Shown: positions 14,201 to 29,253 of the stretch, one piece after another
Numbering within the stretch: the first letter of the stretch is position 1
Layout: each line of letters begins with the position of its first letter
Origin: an uncultured Bacteroidales bacterium
GTDB lineage: Bacteria; Bacteroidota; Bacteroidia; Bacteroidales; UBA4417
NCBI GenBank assembly: GCA_903864265.1
Contig: CAIPFN010000157.1
Span: 687 to 64,686 of the forward strand
Direction: 5' to 3'
Length of the DNA stretch: 64,000 bases
The notes under the pieces: generated by a model
Seen by the model: the letters and a program-made list of their open reading frames with translations, nothing else
Database searches by the model: none
Told to the model about the DNA's origin: nothing
Position numbers and translations under genes: made by a program

Positions 14201-17200
14201 TTTAACTATGACCTTAACAGTCCCGGGAACTGCCCTCACAGGAGCTACCCGGATCAGGGTAATGTCTAATTATGATGGTTACGGCTATCCTTCTGATCCC
14301 TGCGGGTGGAATTATTTCGGGAACGCTGCTGATTTCTCAGTGAATATTATGTCCCCCGGACCGCCAATCGTATCCACCGGGGTAGCAACTGATCTAAATA
14401 TCAGCAGCGCTACCTTGAATGGTTTGGTGAATCCGAACTATTTTTCGAGCACAATTTCCTTCGATTATGGGTTGACGGCTTCTTATGGATCCTCAATTGC
14501 CGGCACTCCGTCACCTTTAAGCGGGGGTGTAAATACGGCAATAACAGCAGCACTGACAGGGCTTACGGCAAATACAACATATCATTTCCGCATCAGTAGT
14601 ACGAATTCGGCAGGTACTTCTTTAGGCGATGATGTGACATTTACAACCACTCCAACCCCTGTTTTCATCGTTTCAGGCGGCGGAACCTACTGCAGCAATG
14701 GCTCGGGATTAAGTGTGGGCCTTAGCGGTTCGGATGTGAATGCAACTTACCAGTTGTATAAAAATGCTGTTGCATTTGGCAGTACTGTATCAGGTACCGG
14801 AAATCCACTTTCGTGGGACAATTTGTCTGACGGAACTTACACCATACAGGCAATTACTTCGGCGGGAAATACATGGATGATCGGGAATGCGGTTATATCT
14901 TCATATAATAACCCGGTTTCGGTGTATATCTATGCATCCGCGTATACCATATGCCCGGGCACCTCGGTTACTTTCACGGCATACCAGTCCAACGGGGGGG
15001 CAACACCTGCATACCAGTGGGTAGTTAATAATGTGAATGTAGGTTCGGACTCGTATCAATATTCCTATATCCCTAATGGCGGGGATGAGGTTAAGTGCAT
15101 ATTAACTTCCAATATTGCCTGTCCCACCGGGAACCCGGCAACCTCCAATACGATTACAATAACTGTCTCCAGTCCTGTTCCCAGCATTTCCGGTTCGGAT
15201 GTAGCCTGTGCCGGTTCTTCGGGTAATTCCTATTCTACGGAGTTTGGCATGTCGAACTATGTATGGAATGTTTCAGCCGGAGGAACTATCACCTCAGGCG
15301 GGAACGGATATTATTATGTAACCGTTACCTGGAATACTACCGGAGCTCAGACAGTAAGTGTTAACTACACGAATGGCTATTCCTGTACAGCAGCAACCCC
15401 AACTGTTAAAAACGTTTCCGTAAATGTAATGCCTACTCCGACCATCTCCGGATCCGCCACGGTTTGTGCCGGCTCAACCGGTAATATTTATACCACGGAA
15501 TCGGGCATGAGCGGATATTCGTGGGCAGTATCAGGCGGAACTATCACTGCAGGTTCAGGAACCAGCCAGATAACAGTGACCTGGAATTCCTCCGGAGCAC
15601 AGACCGTAAGTGTGAACTACTCAAACGGATGTACTCCTGCTTCGCCAACAATTTATAATGTAACGGTGAATCCTATCTCAACTCCAACGATAACAGGTCC
15701 TGTTACGGCATGCGTTAATTCAAGCGGGAATGTTTACTCAACCGAGCCCGGAATGAGCAGCTACAACTGGTCCGTTTCGTCAGGAGGCACAATCACTGCC
15801 GGTGGAAGCTCAGCTGATAATACGGTTACCGTAACCTGGAATGCTTCGGGAAGCAGATCAGTGCATGTGAGCTACACTAATACTTTTAGTTGCGGCGTAT
15901 CTGCCCCAGGTGTACTTAATGTGACGGTAAATCCTTTACCGGTACCAACCATTACCGGTCCCACAGTTATTTGTGATATTCCATCAACAGTCAATACCTA
16001 TACTACCGAAGCGGGGATGACAGGATATACCTGGGCAGTTTCTGCCGGAGGTACAGTCACGGCTGGAGGAACTGCTGCAGATAATTCAATTACCATAACC
16101 TGGACAGCCTTAGGCGCACAAAGTGTGAGCATTACCTATACCAGTAGTAATGGTTGTACTCCTTCAGGTCCAATGGTGAAAACTGTGAATGTTTATGCTT
16201 TGCCAGTTCCTGCCATTACCGGACCAGCTACTGTTTGCGGTATCCCGTCAACGGGTAATTTATATTATACTGAAACCGGAATGACAGGATATTCCTGGAC
16301 GGTTTCTGCTGGCGGAACCATCACCTCCGGTTCCGGTCACTACATTTATGTCACCTGGAATACAGCCGGTGCGAAAACAGTTAGCGTTACCTATGCCGAT
16401 CATGGCTGCAATCCGGTAAGCCCGACTGTTAAGAATGTGGATGTTTACGACAGACCGGTTCCTGTAATTACCGGCCCTACTGCTATTTGTGGAACCCCAT
16501 CACCTGGAAATGTATATTCCACCGGAGCAGGCATGGCCAACTATGCCTGGACTGTCTCCGGGGGCGCAATCACTGCCGGATCAGGCACAAATTCCATAAC
16601 CGTGAACTGGACATCACCCGGAGCCAGAACTGTACGGGTTACAGTTACCGATGGCAACGGATGTACTTCAAACCAGGTTGTTTATAATGTTGATGTGTAT
16701 GCACTACCTATTCCGTTTATTACTGGCGATGCATCTATATGTGAACCTCCATCTGCTGGTCATGTATATGCAACACAATCAGGCATGACAGGATATGTAT
16801 GGACTGTTTCGGCTGGTGGTACGGTTACTGCCGGCGGAAATGCATCAGATAACTCCATTACTGTTACCTGGACGGCATTAGGTGCACAAAGTGTAAGCGT
16901 AACTTATGCCGACGTGAATAGTTGTGTGCCTGCAAGTCCGACCGTTAAGAGTGTAAATGTTTACAACCTGCCGGTTCCTACCATTACCGGTCCGGCACCT
17001 GTTTGTGGTATTCCTTCATCAGGGAATTTCTATCACACTGAAGCCGGCATGACGGGATATTCATGGGCTGTCTCTGCGGGTGGTACTATTACTTCCGGAG
17101 GTTCCGGTAACTATATCTATGTAACCTGGAATACAGCCGGGGCCCAAACCGTAAGTGTAACGTACGCCGATCATGGTTGTAATCCGGTAAGCCCGACTGT

Positions 17201-23964: not shown

Positions 23965-26649
23965 ATGAAAAGAAACATTCCAAACTTATTGAAAATGCTA
24001 TTCGCCCTTTTGATATTGGGCTGGAGTAGTGACATGAAGGCCCAGACTTATTCAGGCGGCAGTGGCACTAATGTGGACCCTTACCAGGTAAATTCACTTA
24101 CCGACCTTGTTTATCTCAGCGCTCACAGTACCGATTGGGGATTATATTTCAGGCAAACTGCCGATCTGGTTTTTCCAGGCCCCAACACAGGTGATGGTTT
24201 CTCCCCTATTGGTGATGCAGCAACTATGTTTACCGGGGAATATAACGGAGATGGCCACACGGTTTCAAATCTTTATATCAACCGACCCCTTACTGATGAT
24301 GTTGGTTTATTTGGATACAGTGTGGGCGTGGTGAAAAACCTTGGGTTACTTAATGTTGATATTACCGGGCAAAATGATGTAGGGGCCCTTGGGGGTACCT
24401 TGATTTCGGCCGATAATTGCTATACAACCGGTAGCGTAAATGGTGATTATTATGTAGGAGGACTTGGTGGCTATACTTCAAACAGTAATAATAGTCATTC
24501 AACTTGCAGTGTAACTGGGACTATTCATGTTGGTGGGTTTGCCGGATATAATTTAGGGAATTTAAACCGTTGTTATGCCTCAGGTACCGTAAGTGGTAAT
24601 TCCGGCAGCAGTAATGTCGGAGGTTTTGTCGGGTATAATAATTCAGCCGCTATAACAAATTGTTATTCAACAGGAAATGTATCGGGAACTTTGAATGCTA
24701 TCGGTGGTTTTGTAGGATATAATTATGGTTCGGGGACTATCCTGAACTGTTACGCTACCGGAAACGTGACAGGCGATACCTATGTGGGCGGGCTTGTCGG
24801 GGGAATTGATAATGCTTCGACGGTGCAGTTTAGCTTTTCAAAAGGACATGTTACCGGGAATACGGCAAAAGGTGGACTGGTAGGCTGGTTAGATGCAGGA
24901 GGCATTGTTGAAACCAGTTTCTGGGATATAGGAACATCAGGACTGGCAACAAGCGCTGGGGGCACCGGAAAAACCACCGACGAAATGAAAAAGGTAGGCA
25001 CCTATTTATCAGATCCCAGTTTGGTTATTCCATGGGATTATACCTTGTCCGGGGATAACTGGGCGTTTAACGAAACGGATAATGGCGGCTATCCTTTCCT
25101 CCGTTTCGAAACCCATGTGCCCGCTTATATCTGGCTTGGGACTTCTTCAACGGACTGGTCTGTACCTGCCAACTGGAGTGAGGAAGCGGTGCCGGGGACT
25201 ACAGAAAATGTTATTTTCCCTTCTGTAGGAAGTGAGCCGGCCGTCAGTGGTGGAACCGTGGTTGCAGGGAAAGTCACTATTGAGTCGGATGGGGTTCTCA
25301 CCATAGCCGGTGACGGTAAATTAACCGTAACCGGAACTCTGGTCAACAAGGCAGGCCCTTCGGGACTGGTAATAAATTCAGGCGGCTCGCTTATCGATAA
25401 TACTCCCGCTGTGTCGGCAACCGTGAACAGGGATGTGAATGATCTGAGTGATGACAGATGGCATTTATTTATCTCACCACTTACCACTTCACTTCAGGCT
25501 ACGGCAGCTTCCTGTTTTAACGGTGCGTATCTCGACCGGTATAATGAGCCCTCCGGTGAATGGGTGCGTCTTCTGACCGATGATTTTGTGACTGCCGGAA
25601 CAGGCTATTCGCTCAACTACCTGGCAGGGGTTAAACAATTAGTATTCCCGGGTTCGTTGAAATCAAGCCCGGTTGAGTTTTCAGCTTTAAGTTATACCCC
25701 AGGAGCACCCGGGTACCTGGAAGGCTGGAATCTGATAGGCAATCCGTATCCCTGCGGAATCGATCCCGCATTATGCGCTGTTCCTACGGGGATGAACGCT
25801 TTTGCCTACCTATGGGATGGGGCAGCCGGGAATTATACCACTCTGTCCATTGGCTCAAATACTATCCCCGGCGCCATTGCCTCCTTGCAGGGCTTTTTCG
25901 TACGTACGAACTCCGCAACAAACTCTCTTACGCTTGCCAATGACGCTAAAACGCATTCGGGTACCTTCTTAAAAGGGGGTACTATCGTTCCTGAAATGCT
26001 GAAGTTAAAGATAAACGGGAACGGCTACTCCGACGAAGCTTACATTCGTTTCATCAATTCGGCTACTTCAGCCTTCGACCAGCAGTATGATGCGTACAAA
26101 ATGGCTGGCAAGGATGAAGCTCCGCAATTGTATTCCATGTTGACTGGCGAAAAGGCTGCCGTTAATGCACTTCCATCCATTGAATCTAATGCAGATGTAT
26201 CACTGGGACTGAAGGTTGGAACTGATGCCAGCTATACCCTTACGGTGAGTGGGATCGAAAGTTTTGATGCTTCAACTCCATTGTTGCTGGAAGATCTGAA
26301 AACCAATACCACCCAGGACCTGAGAAAAAATGCTACCTATACCTTCAACGCTGCGCCATCTGAAACTGAAAACCGCTTTGTACTGCATTTTAAAAAGACC
26401 AATGGCATTGACGAAACAACAGGCAGTATGTTTAACATTTACAGCAACCGGCATACGGTCTATATTAGCAACCCCAAAAACCTGCAAGGCAGCGTTGAGA
26501 TATACGACATCACCGGCCGTATGCTGCGGAATGCGCCGCTTACCGGAAACGTCTTAGATCAGATTGATGTTCTTAATTATACTGGCAGTATGCTTGTGAA
26601 AGTGTTAACTGTAAAGGCTATAACTACGGAGAAAGTATTTGTAAACTAA
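23965..26649 (+). CDS. GLUG-repeat surface protein with T9SS-like C-terminal domain (894 aa)
   Basis: The ORF-track start (23911) is a TTG. ATG 23965 yields signal peptide MKRNIPNLLKMLFALLILGWSSDMKAQ. GLUG-type repeats lie at ~24300-24900 (VGALGGT, VGGLGGY, VGGFAGYN, VGGFVGYN, IGGFVGYN, VGGLVGG, KGGLVGW). The C-terminal ~75 aa (..VEIYDITGRMLRNAP..MLVKVLT..) resemble a T9SS CTD. Confidence 0.85.
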   Translation: MKRNIPNLLKMLFALLILGWSSDMKAQTYSGGSGTNVDPYQVNSLTDLVYLSAHSTDWGLYFRQTADLVFPGPNTGDGFSPIGDAATMFTGEYNGDGHTVSNLYINRPLTDDVGLFGYSVGVVKNLGLLNVDITGQNDVGALGGTLISADNCYTTGSVNGDYYVGGLGGYTSNSNNSHSTCSVTGTIHVGGFAGYNLGNLNRCYASGTVSGNSGSSNVGGFVGYNNSAAITNCYSTGNVSGTLNAIGGFVGYNYGSGTILNCYATGNVTGDTYVGGLVGGIDNASTVQFSFSKGHVTGNTAKGGLVGWLDAGGIVETSFWDIGTSGLATSAGGTGKTTDEMKKVGTYLSDPSLVIPWDYTLSGDNWAFNETDNGGYPFLRFETHVPAYIWLGTSSTDWSVPANWSEEAVPGTTENVIFPSVGSEPAVSGGTVVAGKVTIESDGVLTIAGDGKLTVTGTLVNKAGPSGLVINSGGSLIDNTPAVSATVNRDVNDLSDDRWHLFISPLTTSLQATAASCFNGAYLDRYNEPSGEWVRLLTDDFVTAGTGYSLNYLAGVKQLVFPGSLKSSPVEFSALSYTPGAPGYLEGWNLIGNPYPCGIDPALCAVPTGMNAFAYLWDGAAGNYTTLSIGSNTIPGAIASLQGFFVRTNSATNSLTLANDAKTHSGTFLKGGTIVPEMLKLKINGNGYSDEAYIRFINSATSAFDQQYDAYKMAGKDEAPQLYSMLTGEKAAVNALPSIESNADVSLGLKVGTDASYTLTVSGIESFDASTPLLLEDLKTNTTQDLRKNATYTFNAAPSETENRFVLHFKKTNGIDETTGSMFNIYSNRHTVYISNPKNLQGSVEIYDITGRMLRNAPLTGNVLDQIDVLNYTGSMLVKVLTVKAITTEKVFVN

Positions 26650-26665
26650 TAAAAACCACCATATT

Positions 26666-26905
26666 ATGAAAAAGACTTTTAAATTTTTAGCCCTTACAGT
26701 AGTATTTGTCACAGCCGGTTACCTGGCCCAGGCACAGCCGCACCCGGGTGAGCAAAACGGAGCAGGTTCTGTTTCCGGAGGCCGTATCGGATCGGGTCCG
26801 TCAGCCCCGATAGGGGATGGGCTGAGCATACTCTTGTTGTCGGCATTCGTTTTCGGAGGGTATAAGTTTTATCGCTCCCGTCGTGAGGCGTTAAGGATGG
26901 AATAA
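26666..26905 (+). CDS. 79-aa mini-protein: signal peptide + Gly/Ser/Pro linker + motif/TM helix/basic-cluster tail
   Basis: The ATG is 16 nt after the GLUG stop. Signal peptide MKKTFKFLALTVVFVTAGYLAQA, then linker PHPGEQNGAGSVSGGRIGSGPSA. The tail is PIGDG, a hydrophobic helix (LSILLLSAFVFGGYKFY) and RSRR. It lies inside the transcription unit closed by the terminator at 26987. Confidence 0.55.
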   Translation: MKKTFKFLALTVVFVTAGYLAQAQPHPGEQNGAGSVSGGRIGSGPSAPIGDGLSILLLSAFVFGGYKFYRSRREALRME

Positions 26906-26986
26906 TTTATAACGGCATCCATCAGATTTATTCATTTCATACTGAACCAGGGCAGGACACCTGCCTGGAGGCAGGCAAAACCCGGG

Positions 26987-27027
26987 AAAAGCATTTGCCA
27001 GTAATAACTACTGGTAAATGCTTTTTT
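26987..27027 (+). terminator. strong rho-independent terminator closing the giant/GLUG/mini-protein operon
   Basis: AAAAGCATTTGCCAGTA-ataac-TACTGGTAAATGCTTTT forms a 17-bp stem with one G.T wobble. It runs into a T6 tract (27022-27027). Confidence 0.8.
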
Positions 27028-27142: not shown

Positions 27143-28240
27143 ATGAAACAGGTATTGACATATGTAGGGTACTTCTTGTTTTTAGCCCTGGTAAGTTTCC
27201 TTATCTGGCGTTTTTCCTTTATGATCATATGGGTGTTGATTGCGGCCATTATTTCATTTGTAGGACATCCGCTGGTAAGGTTTTTCGACGGCATCCATAT
27301 TAAAAAATGGAGGATACCTCACTCCCTGAGTGCCGGCCTGGCCTTACTATGTATAATACTGCTGTTTTTTGTATTGCTGGCAGTTTTTGTGCCGCTCATT
27401 GTTAGCCAGGCTGAGACAATTTCGAAAATAGATGTGAACCGCCTGGCCCAGGACCTGCAGGGCCCTATGCATTGGCTCGACAAGCAATTGCATACCTTTG
27501 GAGTGATCCCAGCCGGGCAGACCTTGCAGGAATTCATCATCATCAAGGCCAAATCGGTTGTAAATCTCGGGAATGTAAGCGGAGCTTTAAACGACTTTTT
27601 CAGCGTGGCGGGGACCGTCTTTGTCGGCTTGTTTTCGGTGTTTTTTATCGCTTTCTTTTTTATGAAAGACGAAACCATGTTCGAAGAAACCCTCCTGCTC
27701 TTTGTTCCTGTTAAGCATCATGATGCTACCCGAAAGGTGATTGCCGATTCCAAAAACCTGCTGATGCGATATTTCATAGGCGTACTACTGGAAGTGCTGA
27801 GCGTGATGACAATCATCGCTCTGGGGCTTTGGATATTCGGAGTGGAAAATGCCCTGCTGATCGGGTTTTTTGGAGGAGTCATGAATATTATCCCTTACCT
27901 GGGTCCCATAATCGGGTCAACTATTGGCATTGCATTAGGGATAACGGCTACACTTGCTTCCGGTTCATATGCCGAACTTTTGCCAGTTCTGGCTAAACTG
28001 TGCGGGGTAATTTTTTCGGCCCATTTTATCGATAATAATATCCTTGTGCCTGTCATTTACTCGAAAAGCGTGAAAGCACACCCTCTCGAAATCTTTTTTG
28101 TAATTATCATGGGGGGCAGCCTTGCCGGTATTCCCGGAATGCTGGTGGCTATACCGGTATATACTGTGCTCAGGGTTATAGCGAAGGAATTCTTTCAGCA
28201 GTTCAGGGTAGTGCAGAAACTCACTGCTAAAATTGATTAA
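27143..28240 (+). CDS. AI-2E family (PerM/UPF0118) transporter
   Basis: 365-aa polytopic membrane protein. The C-terminal half has the family pattern (..LLMRYFIGVLLEVLSVMTII..LLIGFFGGVMNIIPYLGPIIGS..). Confidence 0.8.
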   Translation: MKQVLTYVGYFLFLALVSFLIWRFSFMIIWVLIAAIISFVGHPLVRFFDGIHIKKWRIPHSLSAGLALLCIILLFFVLLAVFVPLIVSQAETISKIDVNRLAQDLQGPMHWLDKQLHTFGVIPAGQTLQEFIIIKAKSVVNLGNVSGALNDFFSVAGTVFVGLFSVFFIAFFFMKDETMFEETLLLFVPVKHHDATRKVIADSKNLLMRYFIGVLLEVLSVMTIIALGLWIFGVENALLIGFFGGVMNIIPYLGPIIGSTIGIALGITATLASGSYAELLPVLAKLCGVIFSAHFIDNNILVPVIYSKSVKAHPLEIFFVIIMGGSLAGIPGMLVAIPVYTVLRVIAKEFFQQFRVVQKLTAKID

Positions 28241-28248
28241 GAAAAGGT

Positions 28249-29253
28249 ATGCAAAACTGGGCGTTTTACTACCTTTCCTTGTTGAAAACCTTAAATCCGG
28301 CCAGGGTACTGAATGTTTCCCTGGTAGGGATAAGTTTTCAGATAAGCAAGGTATTCCGCATACCCATTCTGGCTGGAAAGCCCTGGGCTGCTTCCATCGA
28401 ACCTACTACATACTGTAATCTCCAATGCCCGGAATGCCCGACAGGAATGCAATCGCTTACTCGTCGGCAGGGGACAATGGATACAGGCGTATTCAGGAGC
28501 ATATTGGATAAACTTTCGCCGGGTCTCTTACACCTGACCTTGTATTTCCAGGGTGAACCTTTTTTAAATCCCCGGTTTGCCGATATGGTTCAGATAGCCA
28601 GAAAACGCCGCATATTCGTGGTAACATCCACCAACGGGCACCATCTGAGCGAAAAAAATGTGGAGAATATTATTCGCAGCGGCTTGAACCACCTGATCAT
28701 TTCGCTCGACGGCATGGATCAGCAAACCTATGAGAAATACCGTGTAAATGGTAATTTCCTCACAGTAACTCAGGGAATACACAGGCTTGTTGCTGCCAGG
28801 AAAGCCATGAAATCCAGAACGCCTTTTATTGAATTGCAGTTTATCGTCATGCGCCATAATGAACATCAGATGGAGCAAGTGCGGGAGTTCGCAAAGATGG
28901 CAGGAGTAGATAAGCTTTCATACAAAACCGCCCAGGTATACCATTTCGATGTGGCGGGTACGATAATTCCAAAGCTGAAAGAAAAATCGCGCTACAGTCA
29001 GTTGCCCGATGGTTCCTGGGTAATGGCTAAGAAAATAAGGAATAGGTGTAAGCGTGTATGGAGTTCTATAGTACTTACCTGGGAAGGGAATGTTGTTCCC
29101 TGTTGCTACGATAAAAATGCGGATTATCAAGCCGGCAACCTGCTCAACGATTCCCTCGAGGCTATCTGGAAAAACCAGCGTTATACTTCGTTCAGGCAGC
29201 AGGTGCTGAACAACAGATCCGAAATTGAAATCTGCCGGAATTGCGGGGAGTGA
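28249..29253 (+). CDS. radical SAM protein with SPASM/twitch-like C-terminal Cys cluster
   Basis: CNLQCPEC (C56-x3-C60-x2-C63) is the radical-SAM cluster motif. GEPFLNP and VTSTNGH are also present. The C-terminal segment is C..VWSSIVLTWEGNVVPCCYD...EICRNCGE. Start is 8 nt after the AI-2E stop. Confidence 0.85.
   Translation: MQNWAFYYLSLLKTLNPARVLNVSLVGISFQISKVFRIPILAGKPWAASIEPTTYCNLQCPECPTGMQSLTRRQGTMDTGVFRSILDKLSPGLLHLTLYFQGEPFLNPRFADMVQIARKRRIFVVTSTNGHHLSEKNVENIIRSGLNHLIISLDGMDQQTYEKYRVNGNFLTVTQGIHRLVAARKAMKSRTPFIELQFIVMRHNEHQMEQVREFAKMAGVDKLSYKTAQVYHFDVAGTIIPKLKEKSRYSQLPDGSWVMAKKIRNRCKRVWSSIVLTWEGNVVPCCYDKNADYQAGNLLNDSLEAIWKNQRYTSFRQQVLNNRSEIEICRNCGE

Follow-up and report, generated by a model that had tools for sequence, protein, structure and literature searches.

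What can a secreted protein contribute to the cell when it appears to consist of little besides its own targeting signals? The question is raised by an open reading frame at positions 26666 to 26905, on the forward strand of a 64,000-nucleotide stretch of DNA from an uncultured Bacteroidales bacterium, which was analyzed as a whole and is called the window here. Retranslation gave the same protein as the initial annotation, 79 amino acids followed by a stop codon. Residues 1 to 23 (positions 26666 to 26734) read as a Sec signal peptide, with an MKKTFK start, a hydrophobic core, and an AQA sequence directly before Gln24; in the Bacteroidota, proteins cut by signal peptidase I habitually have glutamine at +1. 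Residues 24 to 46 (26735 to 26803), from the sequence and family alignments, form a linker rich in proline, glycine, and serine that is predicted to be periplasmic and that would be the entire "passenger" if the tail were removed. The tail itself has three parts: a signature motif, A-P-I-G-D-G (residues 47 to 52, 26804 to 26821), delimited by conservation and motif counts; a predicted transmembrane helix, LSILLLSAFVFGGYKFY (residues 53 to 69, 26822 to 26872); and a putatively cytoplasmic basic cluster, RSRR (R70-S-R-R73), with a short end (residues 70 to 79, 26873 to 26902). The position of the basic cluster is kept throughout the family, as GRKVY, KKLR, and similar sequences. Motif, helix, and basic cluster thus lie at the extreme C terminus of a secreted protein, and this layout, together with the domain match described below, supports the proposal that the protein is little more than an exosortase-type C-terminal sorting signal. 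We refer to it as the mini-protein.

The 79-residue open reading frame is a real, conserved gene. Two metagenome orthologs share 71% and 66% amino acid identity with the mini-protein, and each sits 16 nucleotides behind an ortholog (76% and 70% identity) of the gene for a protein with GLUG repeats that also precedes it in the window; the upstream neighbor is therefore retained, as a synteny check proposed in the initial annotation had asked. Nei-Gojobori dN/dS ratios between the mini-protein gene and its orthologs are 0.10 to 0.19, with dS close to saturation, and the sole length difference is one in-frame indel of two codons. A reading frame this short could be a chance opening in the 3' untranslated region of the GLUG gene, and a Shine-Dalgarno sequence is a poor check on such a frame, being rare in Bacteroidota genes. 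Chance, however, would not yield these ratios, the in-frame indel, and the conserved position, nor at least 12 paralogs in the same genome and relatives in 1,665 sequence clusters. The conservation data have already refuted that explanation, and we give it practically no weight. Among the findings that the initial annotation had named as counting against its proposal were a lack of orthologs, a lack of purifying selection, and a tail unique in the genome; what we found instead were orthologs, purifying selection, and at least 12 occurrences of the tail. The gene assignment as a whole draws on the translation, the match to NF046080, the family profile, and dN/dS.

The start codon lies 16 nucleotides past the stop codon of the gene for a 912-amino-acid GLUG-repeat protein (23965 to 26649, forward strand; Pfam Glug). 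Behind the mini-protein gene, at 26985 to 27027 on the same strand, a perfect 19-bp hairpin followed by a U run has the form of an intrinsic terminator; a simple terminator scan missed it, and folding of the sequence detected it (minimum free energy of -41.4 kcal/mol, z = -4.86). From the short gap and the downstream terminator, the mini-protein gene is predicted to be the final gene of the GLUG transcription unit. This agrees with the earlier suggestion that it is coexpressed with type IX secretion system (T9SS) cargo, and the GLUG cargo gene would share its terminator. Between the mini-protein stop codon and the terminator, at 26950 to 26976, there is a small element of three arms, GGCAGG, CCTGCC, and GGCAGG, of which the centroid fold contains one of the two possible hairpins. 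Upstream of the mini-protein gene stand the GLUG gene and the gene for a T9SS protein of 6,180 amino acids. Downstream (27143 to 29253) lie a gene for an AI-2E family transporter and, 8 nucleotides on, a radical SAM/SPASM gene.

A scan of the mini-protein against NCBIfam gave a single match, to PID_CTERM (NF046080), with 17.8 bits and an E value of 0.0022 over residues 48 to 70, compared with a curated cutoff of 26 bits for this model of 25 positions. The motif and helix align to model positions 2 to 24. The "PID-type" model mentioned in the initial annotation does exist, and it is the only NCBIfam model matched. The Pfam scan of the mini-protein gave no match, and no PEP-CTERM model matched it at an E value of ≤10; its motif reads P-I-G and contains no P-E-P. 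It also departs from the Pro-Ile-Asp signature of the model, the aspartate of A-P-I-G-D-G standing one position later.

Searches of the assembly from which the window derives (392 contigs, 64% complete), first with the PID_CTERM model and next with a profile built from the paralogs, found 12 to 13 small open reading frames of the same design. The paralogs, at least 12, are all 70 to 85 amino acids long, and neither the model nor the profile found a large protein bearing the tail in this 64%-complete genome. Beyond the genome, a word-indexed homolog search returned only two relatives, and a profile search was needed for the rest: among 1.84 billion representative proteins, it matched 1,665 clusters at 50% identity (E of ≤0.001). 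The proteins of the best 150 of these clusters are all 62 to 155 amino acids long, and "hypothetical protein" is the name of the matches wherever the source gives one. The initial remark that minimal proteins are often the clearest members of sorting systems understates the case, in that every member found, here and across the phylum, is a mini-protein without a large passenger.

Among 124 family representatives, Q24 and P25 are invariant, and conservation reaches 90% or more at M1, K2, P27, A47, P48, G52, and Y63. The residue following P-[IV] is glycine in 106 of 120 representatives and aspartate in 8, so that the commonest motif is P-[IV]-G-[SGN]-G and P-I-D-G-G is a minority form (PIGSG, 28; PIGGG, 21; PVGSG, 17; PIGNG, 13; PIGDG, 5; PIDGG, 4). 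The PID_CTERM model matches 72 of the 124 representatives at an E value of ≤0.01, and only 11 of them reach about its cutoff (E of ≤6e-6); the Bacteroidales mini-proteins are accordingly a largely subthreshold branch of PID-CTERM. A Bacteroidales relative with the motif APIDGG (genome G120) scores 28.7 bits, above the cutoff. On homology, then, the mini-protein is a divergent member of the PID-CTERM family, to whose above-cutoff members it is joined by a continuum. Mini-proteins of two subtypes, which begin with Gln-Pro-Pro and with Asp-Gln-Pro-Pro after the signal peptide, sometimes stand in tandem behind one cargo gene, as at C237:3713-4439 in the same genome and at L058:9488-9940 and 15441-15885 elsewhere.

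The near-constant companion of these genes is a T9SS type A cargo gene. The mini-protein gene lies just downstream of one, on the same strand, in all eight copies that could be resolved in the genome, the others being at contig ends or in tandem, and seven of the eight cargos pass the type A C-terminal domain (CTD) model TIGR04183. The pairing is not peculiar to this genome. In 28 further genomes from the order, the C terminus encoded upstream matches TIGR04183 at 25 of 29 loci, with gaps of 5 to 250 nucleotides, and at canonical PID-CTERM loci of other classes, the mini-protein follows a type A cargo in 11 of 12 cases. In the window, the C-terminal 125 amino acids of the GLUG cargo match TIGR04183 with 24.2 bits over the last 70 residues (cutoff of 23). 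A C-terminal module of about 110 to 125 residues is common to the cargos paired with mini-proteins; in the GLUG cargo, alignment and a custom hidden Markov model (HMM) place it at 26270 to 26646 on the forward strand, about 125 residues long and composed of a pre-CTD strand motif followed by the T9SS CTD (E of 3.5e-26 with the HMM). The strand motif of cargos that precede mini-proteins is Y-x-F ... G-D ... R-F-x-L-H-F. Within the genome of the window, a mini-protein gene follows 7 of the 12 cargo genes whose products have the full module but only 1 of the roughly 20 whose products have a plain CTD, and the pre-CTD motif may define a cargo subclass that recognizes the mini-protein. Cargos at canonical PID loci carry a similar R-F-x-I-x-I strand, and loci L011 to L040 share the pre-CTD motif.

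As had been stated at the outset, the window holds no sortase-like gene; two exosortase-family genes lie on other contigs of the genome. One of them, C361:276-848, has its best match to XrtX (NF046081), at 86.5 bits against a cutoff of 170, and passes the exosortase/archaeosortase signature TIGR04178 with 54.7 bits (cutoff of 23). Its Bacteroidales orthologs score 69 to 110 bits against the XrtX model, forming a subfamily that shares about 30% identity with canonical XrtX; C97, R138, and H157 are invariant in all 17 Bacteroidales-type and canonical XrtX sequences compared. Adjoining genes encode a VanZ protein, a FemAB-family protein (TIGR03019, 132 bits), a deacetylase with Polysacc_deac_1 and DUF3473 domains, and a GT4 transferase. 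Together they make up a polysaccharide locus that includes VimA-like and VimE-like genes, and genes in this arrangement are found in other genomes as well. The XrtX-associated membrane protein NF046082 had no match at an E value of ≤1 in the 64%-complete genome, and none was seen beside the enzyme orthologs at loci L056 to L061.

Do mini-proteins and this type of enzyme travel together? In a sample of 201 genomes from about 148 families of the order, mini-proteins (E of ≤1e-10) and an XrtX-like enzyme (E of ≤1e-20) were each present in 34. Both occurred in 29 genomes, mini-proteins alone in 5, the enzyme without a strong mini-protein match in another 5, and neither in 162, which gives an odds ratio of 188 (Fisher P = 8e-25, with phylogeny not corrected for). 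The T9SS fails to explain this pattern, because its sortase PorU is present nearly everywhere (187 of 201 genomes, and also the genome of the window); the presence of a T9SS was accordingly rejected as the cause of the patchy distribution of mini-proteins. At the level of the phylum, true XrtX (≥170 bits) was found in 51 of 301 genomes and any XrtX-family match in 99, and all 69 genomes positive for PID_CTERM (E of ≤5e-4; 67 of them above the cutoff) fall within those 99. The genome studied here likewise combines the mini-protein with an XrtX-family enzyme, that of contig C361. In five genomes (G351, G305, G450, G281, and G446), a PID gene directly adjoins the exosortase gene, and in three more (G120, G136, and G070), a mini-protein gene lies 4 to 5 kb from it. 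There are exceptions: genomes G122 (99% complete), G084, and G157 have mini-proteins without any exosortase signature. The only genome of the same genus, G147 (2.7 Mb, 96% complete), has neither mini-proteins nor exosortase nor PorU, and that of the window, G000, measures 3.6 Mb at 64% completeness; the two differ either by a large within-genus change in gene content or because the bin is heterogeneous.

The XrtX-like exosortase of contig C361 is likely the enzyme that processes the mini-protein, the two genes lying on different contigs of one metagenome bin. Overall, we consider it probable that the gene encodes a mini-protein of the PID-CTERM type that is exported, held in the membrane, and cut by this exosortase, whereupon the released peptide is transferred and serves the neighboring cargo. 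From the sequence features, the mini-protein would be exported by Sec and would lose its signal peptide after A23, making Gln24 the new N terminus. The C-terminal helix and RSRR would then hold it in the inner membrane, with A-P-I-G-D-G at the periplasmic face, where the C361 enzyme would cut. As a membrane cysteine transpeptidase, the exosortase would pass a Pro/Gly peptide of about 25 residues to an acceptor. The FemAB/VimA-family and deacetylase genes flanking the exosortase make a lipid- or polysaccharide-borne sugar modified with an amino acid the most plausible acceptor. Veith et al. (2020, PMC7468200) note that VimA is a member of TIGR03019, the FemAB family associated with exosortases, and they speculate that sugars of a similar kind serve as the acceptors of exosortases; the VimA pathway produces the linking sugar, modified with an amino acid, onto which PorU attaches T9SS cargo. 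The two-gene cassette with a cargo for each paralog means that the peptide most likely serves the cargo beside it, the simplest idea being a role such as an anchor or adaptor for that cargo on the cell surface. The N-terminal glutamine is probably cyclized, which argues against the N terminus of the peptide as an amine acceptor for the cargo. For PID-CTERM proteins and for XrtX, we know of no observed cleavage, acceptor, or product.

Other enzymes and other fates of the tail have to be weighed against this. The initial annotation had pointed to XrtF as an exosortase-family protein of the Bacteroidota, and it does not hold up as the partner here: the two exosortases of the genome score 62.3 bits (C155) and 42.6 bits (C361) against TIGR04128, for which the cutoff is 90, and the enzyme that co-occurs with mini-proteins is XrtX-like, so XrtF was rejected. 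The C155 protein (C155:380-964) passes the XrtH model TIGR04177 with 93.6 bits (cutoff of 86) and is the only exosortase here above a subfamily cutoff. Its gene overlaps by 11 nucleotides a gene for a 199-amino-acid membrane protein (together C155:380-1553) that is itself weakly exosortase-like, at 24.7 bits. That this XrtH-class protein, with its paralogous membrane partner, processes the mini-proteins is nonetheless very improbable. Of 200 other genomes from the order, only 2 contain an ortholog (>40% identity), and one of these two lacks mini-proteins; on this near absence from genomes bearing mini-proteins it was rejected. The tail, moreover, is unlike IPTL-CTERM, the known signal of XrtH, and the NCBIfam scan of the mini-protein gave no IPTL-CTERM match.

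A different alternative dispenses with processing altogether. The mini-protein would then be a single-pass inner membrane microprotein whose tail is a plain stop-transfer anchor and which acts on the neighboring cargo directly, for instance as a holdase in the periplasm, as a targeting factor, or as a regulator, while the correlation with exosortases would be indirect, through a shared lifestyle or envelope type. In its favor, every member found is a mini-protein without a passenger domain; it is the cargo gene, not the exosortase gene, to which the mini-protein gene is tightly and almost universally linked; and G122, G084, and G157 keep mini-proteins in genomes without an exosortase signature. 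Against it stand the confinement of all 69 PID-positive genomes to the 99 with an XrtX-family enzyme, the odds ratio within the order, the direct adjacency of mini-protein and exosortase genes in at least five genomes, and the succession of motif, helix, and basic cluster, which is the layout of known exosortase, archaeosortase, and rhombosortase signals. Weighing these, we regard an unprocessed anchor as unlikely and prefer cleavage by the XrtX-like exosortase. A more specific version of that preferred reading is possible and decidedly tentative: mini-proteins would be genetically encoded adaptor peptides, which the exosortase fixes to a Vim-type sugar and to which the upstream cargo becomes tethered. 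The sugar would sit on a surface glycolipid or polysaccharide, with the peptide bound through its C terminus, and the cargo would be attached through the conserved pre-CTD module or by PorU chemistry, so that each cassette would supply a surface protein and its own anchor.

The system is catalogued in NCBIfam as NF046080 (PID-CTERM), NF046081 (XrtX), and NF046082 (XrtX-associated membrane protein), and our literature searches found no paper on PID-CTERM, XrtX, or "exosortase X." With the catalogued system, the mini-protein shares a signal peptide, glutamine at +1, a short proline-rich linker, an A-P-I-x-G-G motif, a helix of small residues, and a basic cluster; in both, the substrate is always a mini-protein, present in multiple copies behind T9SS type A cargo genes and occurring where an XrtX-family exosortase exists. 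It differs in having P-I-G-D-G (P-[IV]-G-x-G in most Bacteroidales) in place of P-I-D-G-G and a glycine-rich linker about twice as long. The enzyme differs as well: it belongs to a subfamily of its own, with about 30% identity to canonical XrtX, has no NF046082 partner, and is encoded in a polysaccharide/Vim-like locus rather than in the three-gene XrtX cassette.

PEP-CTERM/XrtA (EpsH) resembles the present system in combining a tripartite C-terminal signal with an exosortase-family enzyme in which Cys, Arg, and His are conserved, and it too is linked to polysaccharide genes and to genes for a deacetylase and a FemAB-like protein (TIGR03019); unlike it, the present system lacks the P-E-P motif, has a short enzyme of about 190 amino acids, and has substrates that consist of no more than the mini-protein, without a passenger domain, and whose genes go with those of T9SS cargo. 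XrtF of Flavobacterium johnsoniae is likewise a short Bacteroidota exosortase, with a class of surface and biofilm phenotype in common with T9SS genes, whereas both exosortases here fall below its cutoff. XrtF and the exosortase F-associated protein are needed for surface colonization, and XrtF substrates are not identified in the literature (PMC10936215). The proposed reaction also resembles that of PorU with the Wbp/Vim sugar, in which a transpeptidase joins a new C terminus to an amino-acid-modified sugar, and the TIGR03019 family of VimA adjoins the exosortase here. The substrate of PorU, in contrast, is the T9SS CTD at the outer membrane, and the mini-protein carries an exosortase-type signal of the inner membrane. 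A chemical link between the PorU and exosortase pathways is a hypothesis.

The conservation of the pair of T9SS type A cargo and mini-protein across the phylum suggests that a single surface structure is acted on both by exosortase sorting at the inner membrane and by T9SS/PorU sorting at the outer membrane, and it hints that two sorting systems held to be separate work together. If mini-proteins do act as adaptors, the missing substrates of the short exosortases in Bacteroidota would be these proteins, and T9SS cargo would have a second mode of attachment, represented by the cassette. We found no description of the substrates of these enzymes (XrtF and XrtX) in the searchable literature, and we know of no exosortase with a chemically defined product. 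A mature substrate of about 55 residues without a passenger domain would be near the simplest object in which to find a cleavage site and an acceptor. There is also an annotation gap in a large family (the 1,665 clusters), in that about 90% of the Bacteroidales branch falls below the NCBIfam cutoff and is labeled hypothetical protein. Finally, in several genomes, the XrtX-like gene and GT4 are adjoined by the gene for a conserved protein of about 485 to 540 amino acids that has no Pfam match and ends in ...YYDF or ...YDDF (L056:8062-9687, L059:10117-11574, and L061:2859-4463); this protein may be an outer membrane component of the exosortase system.
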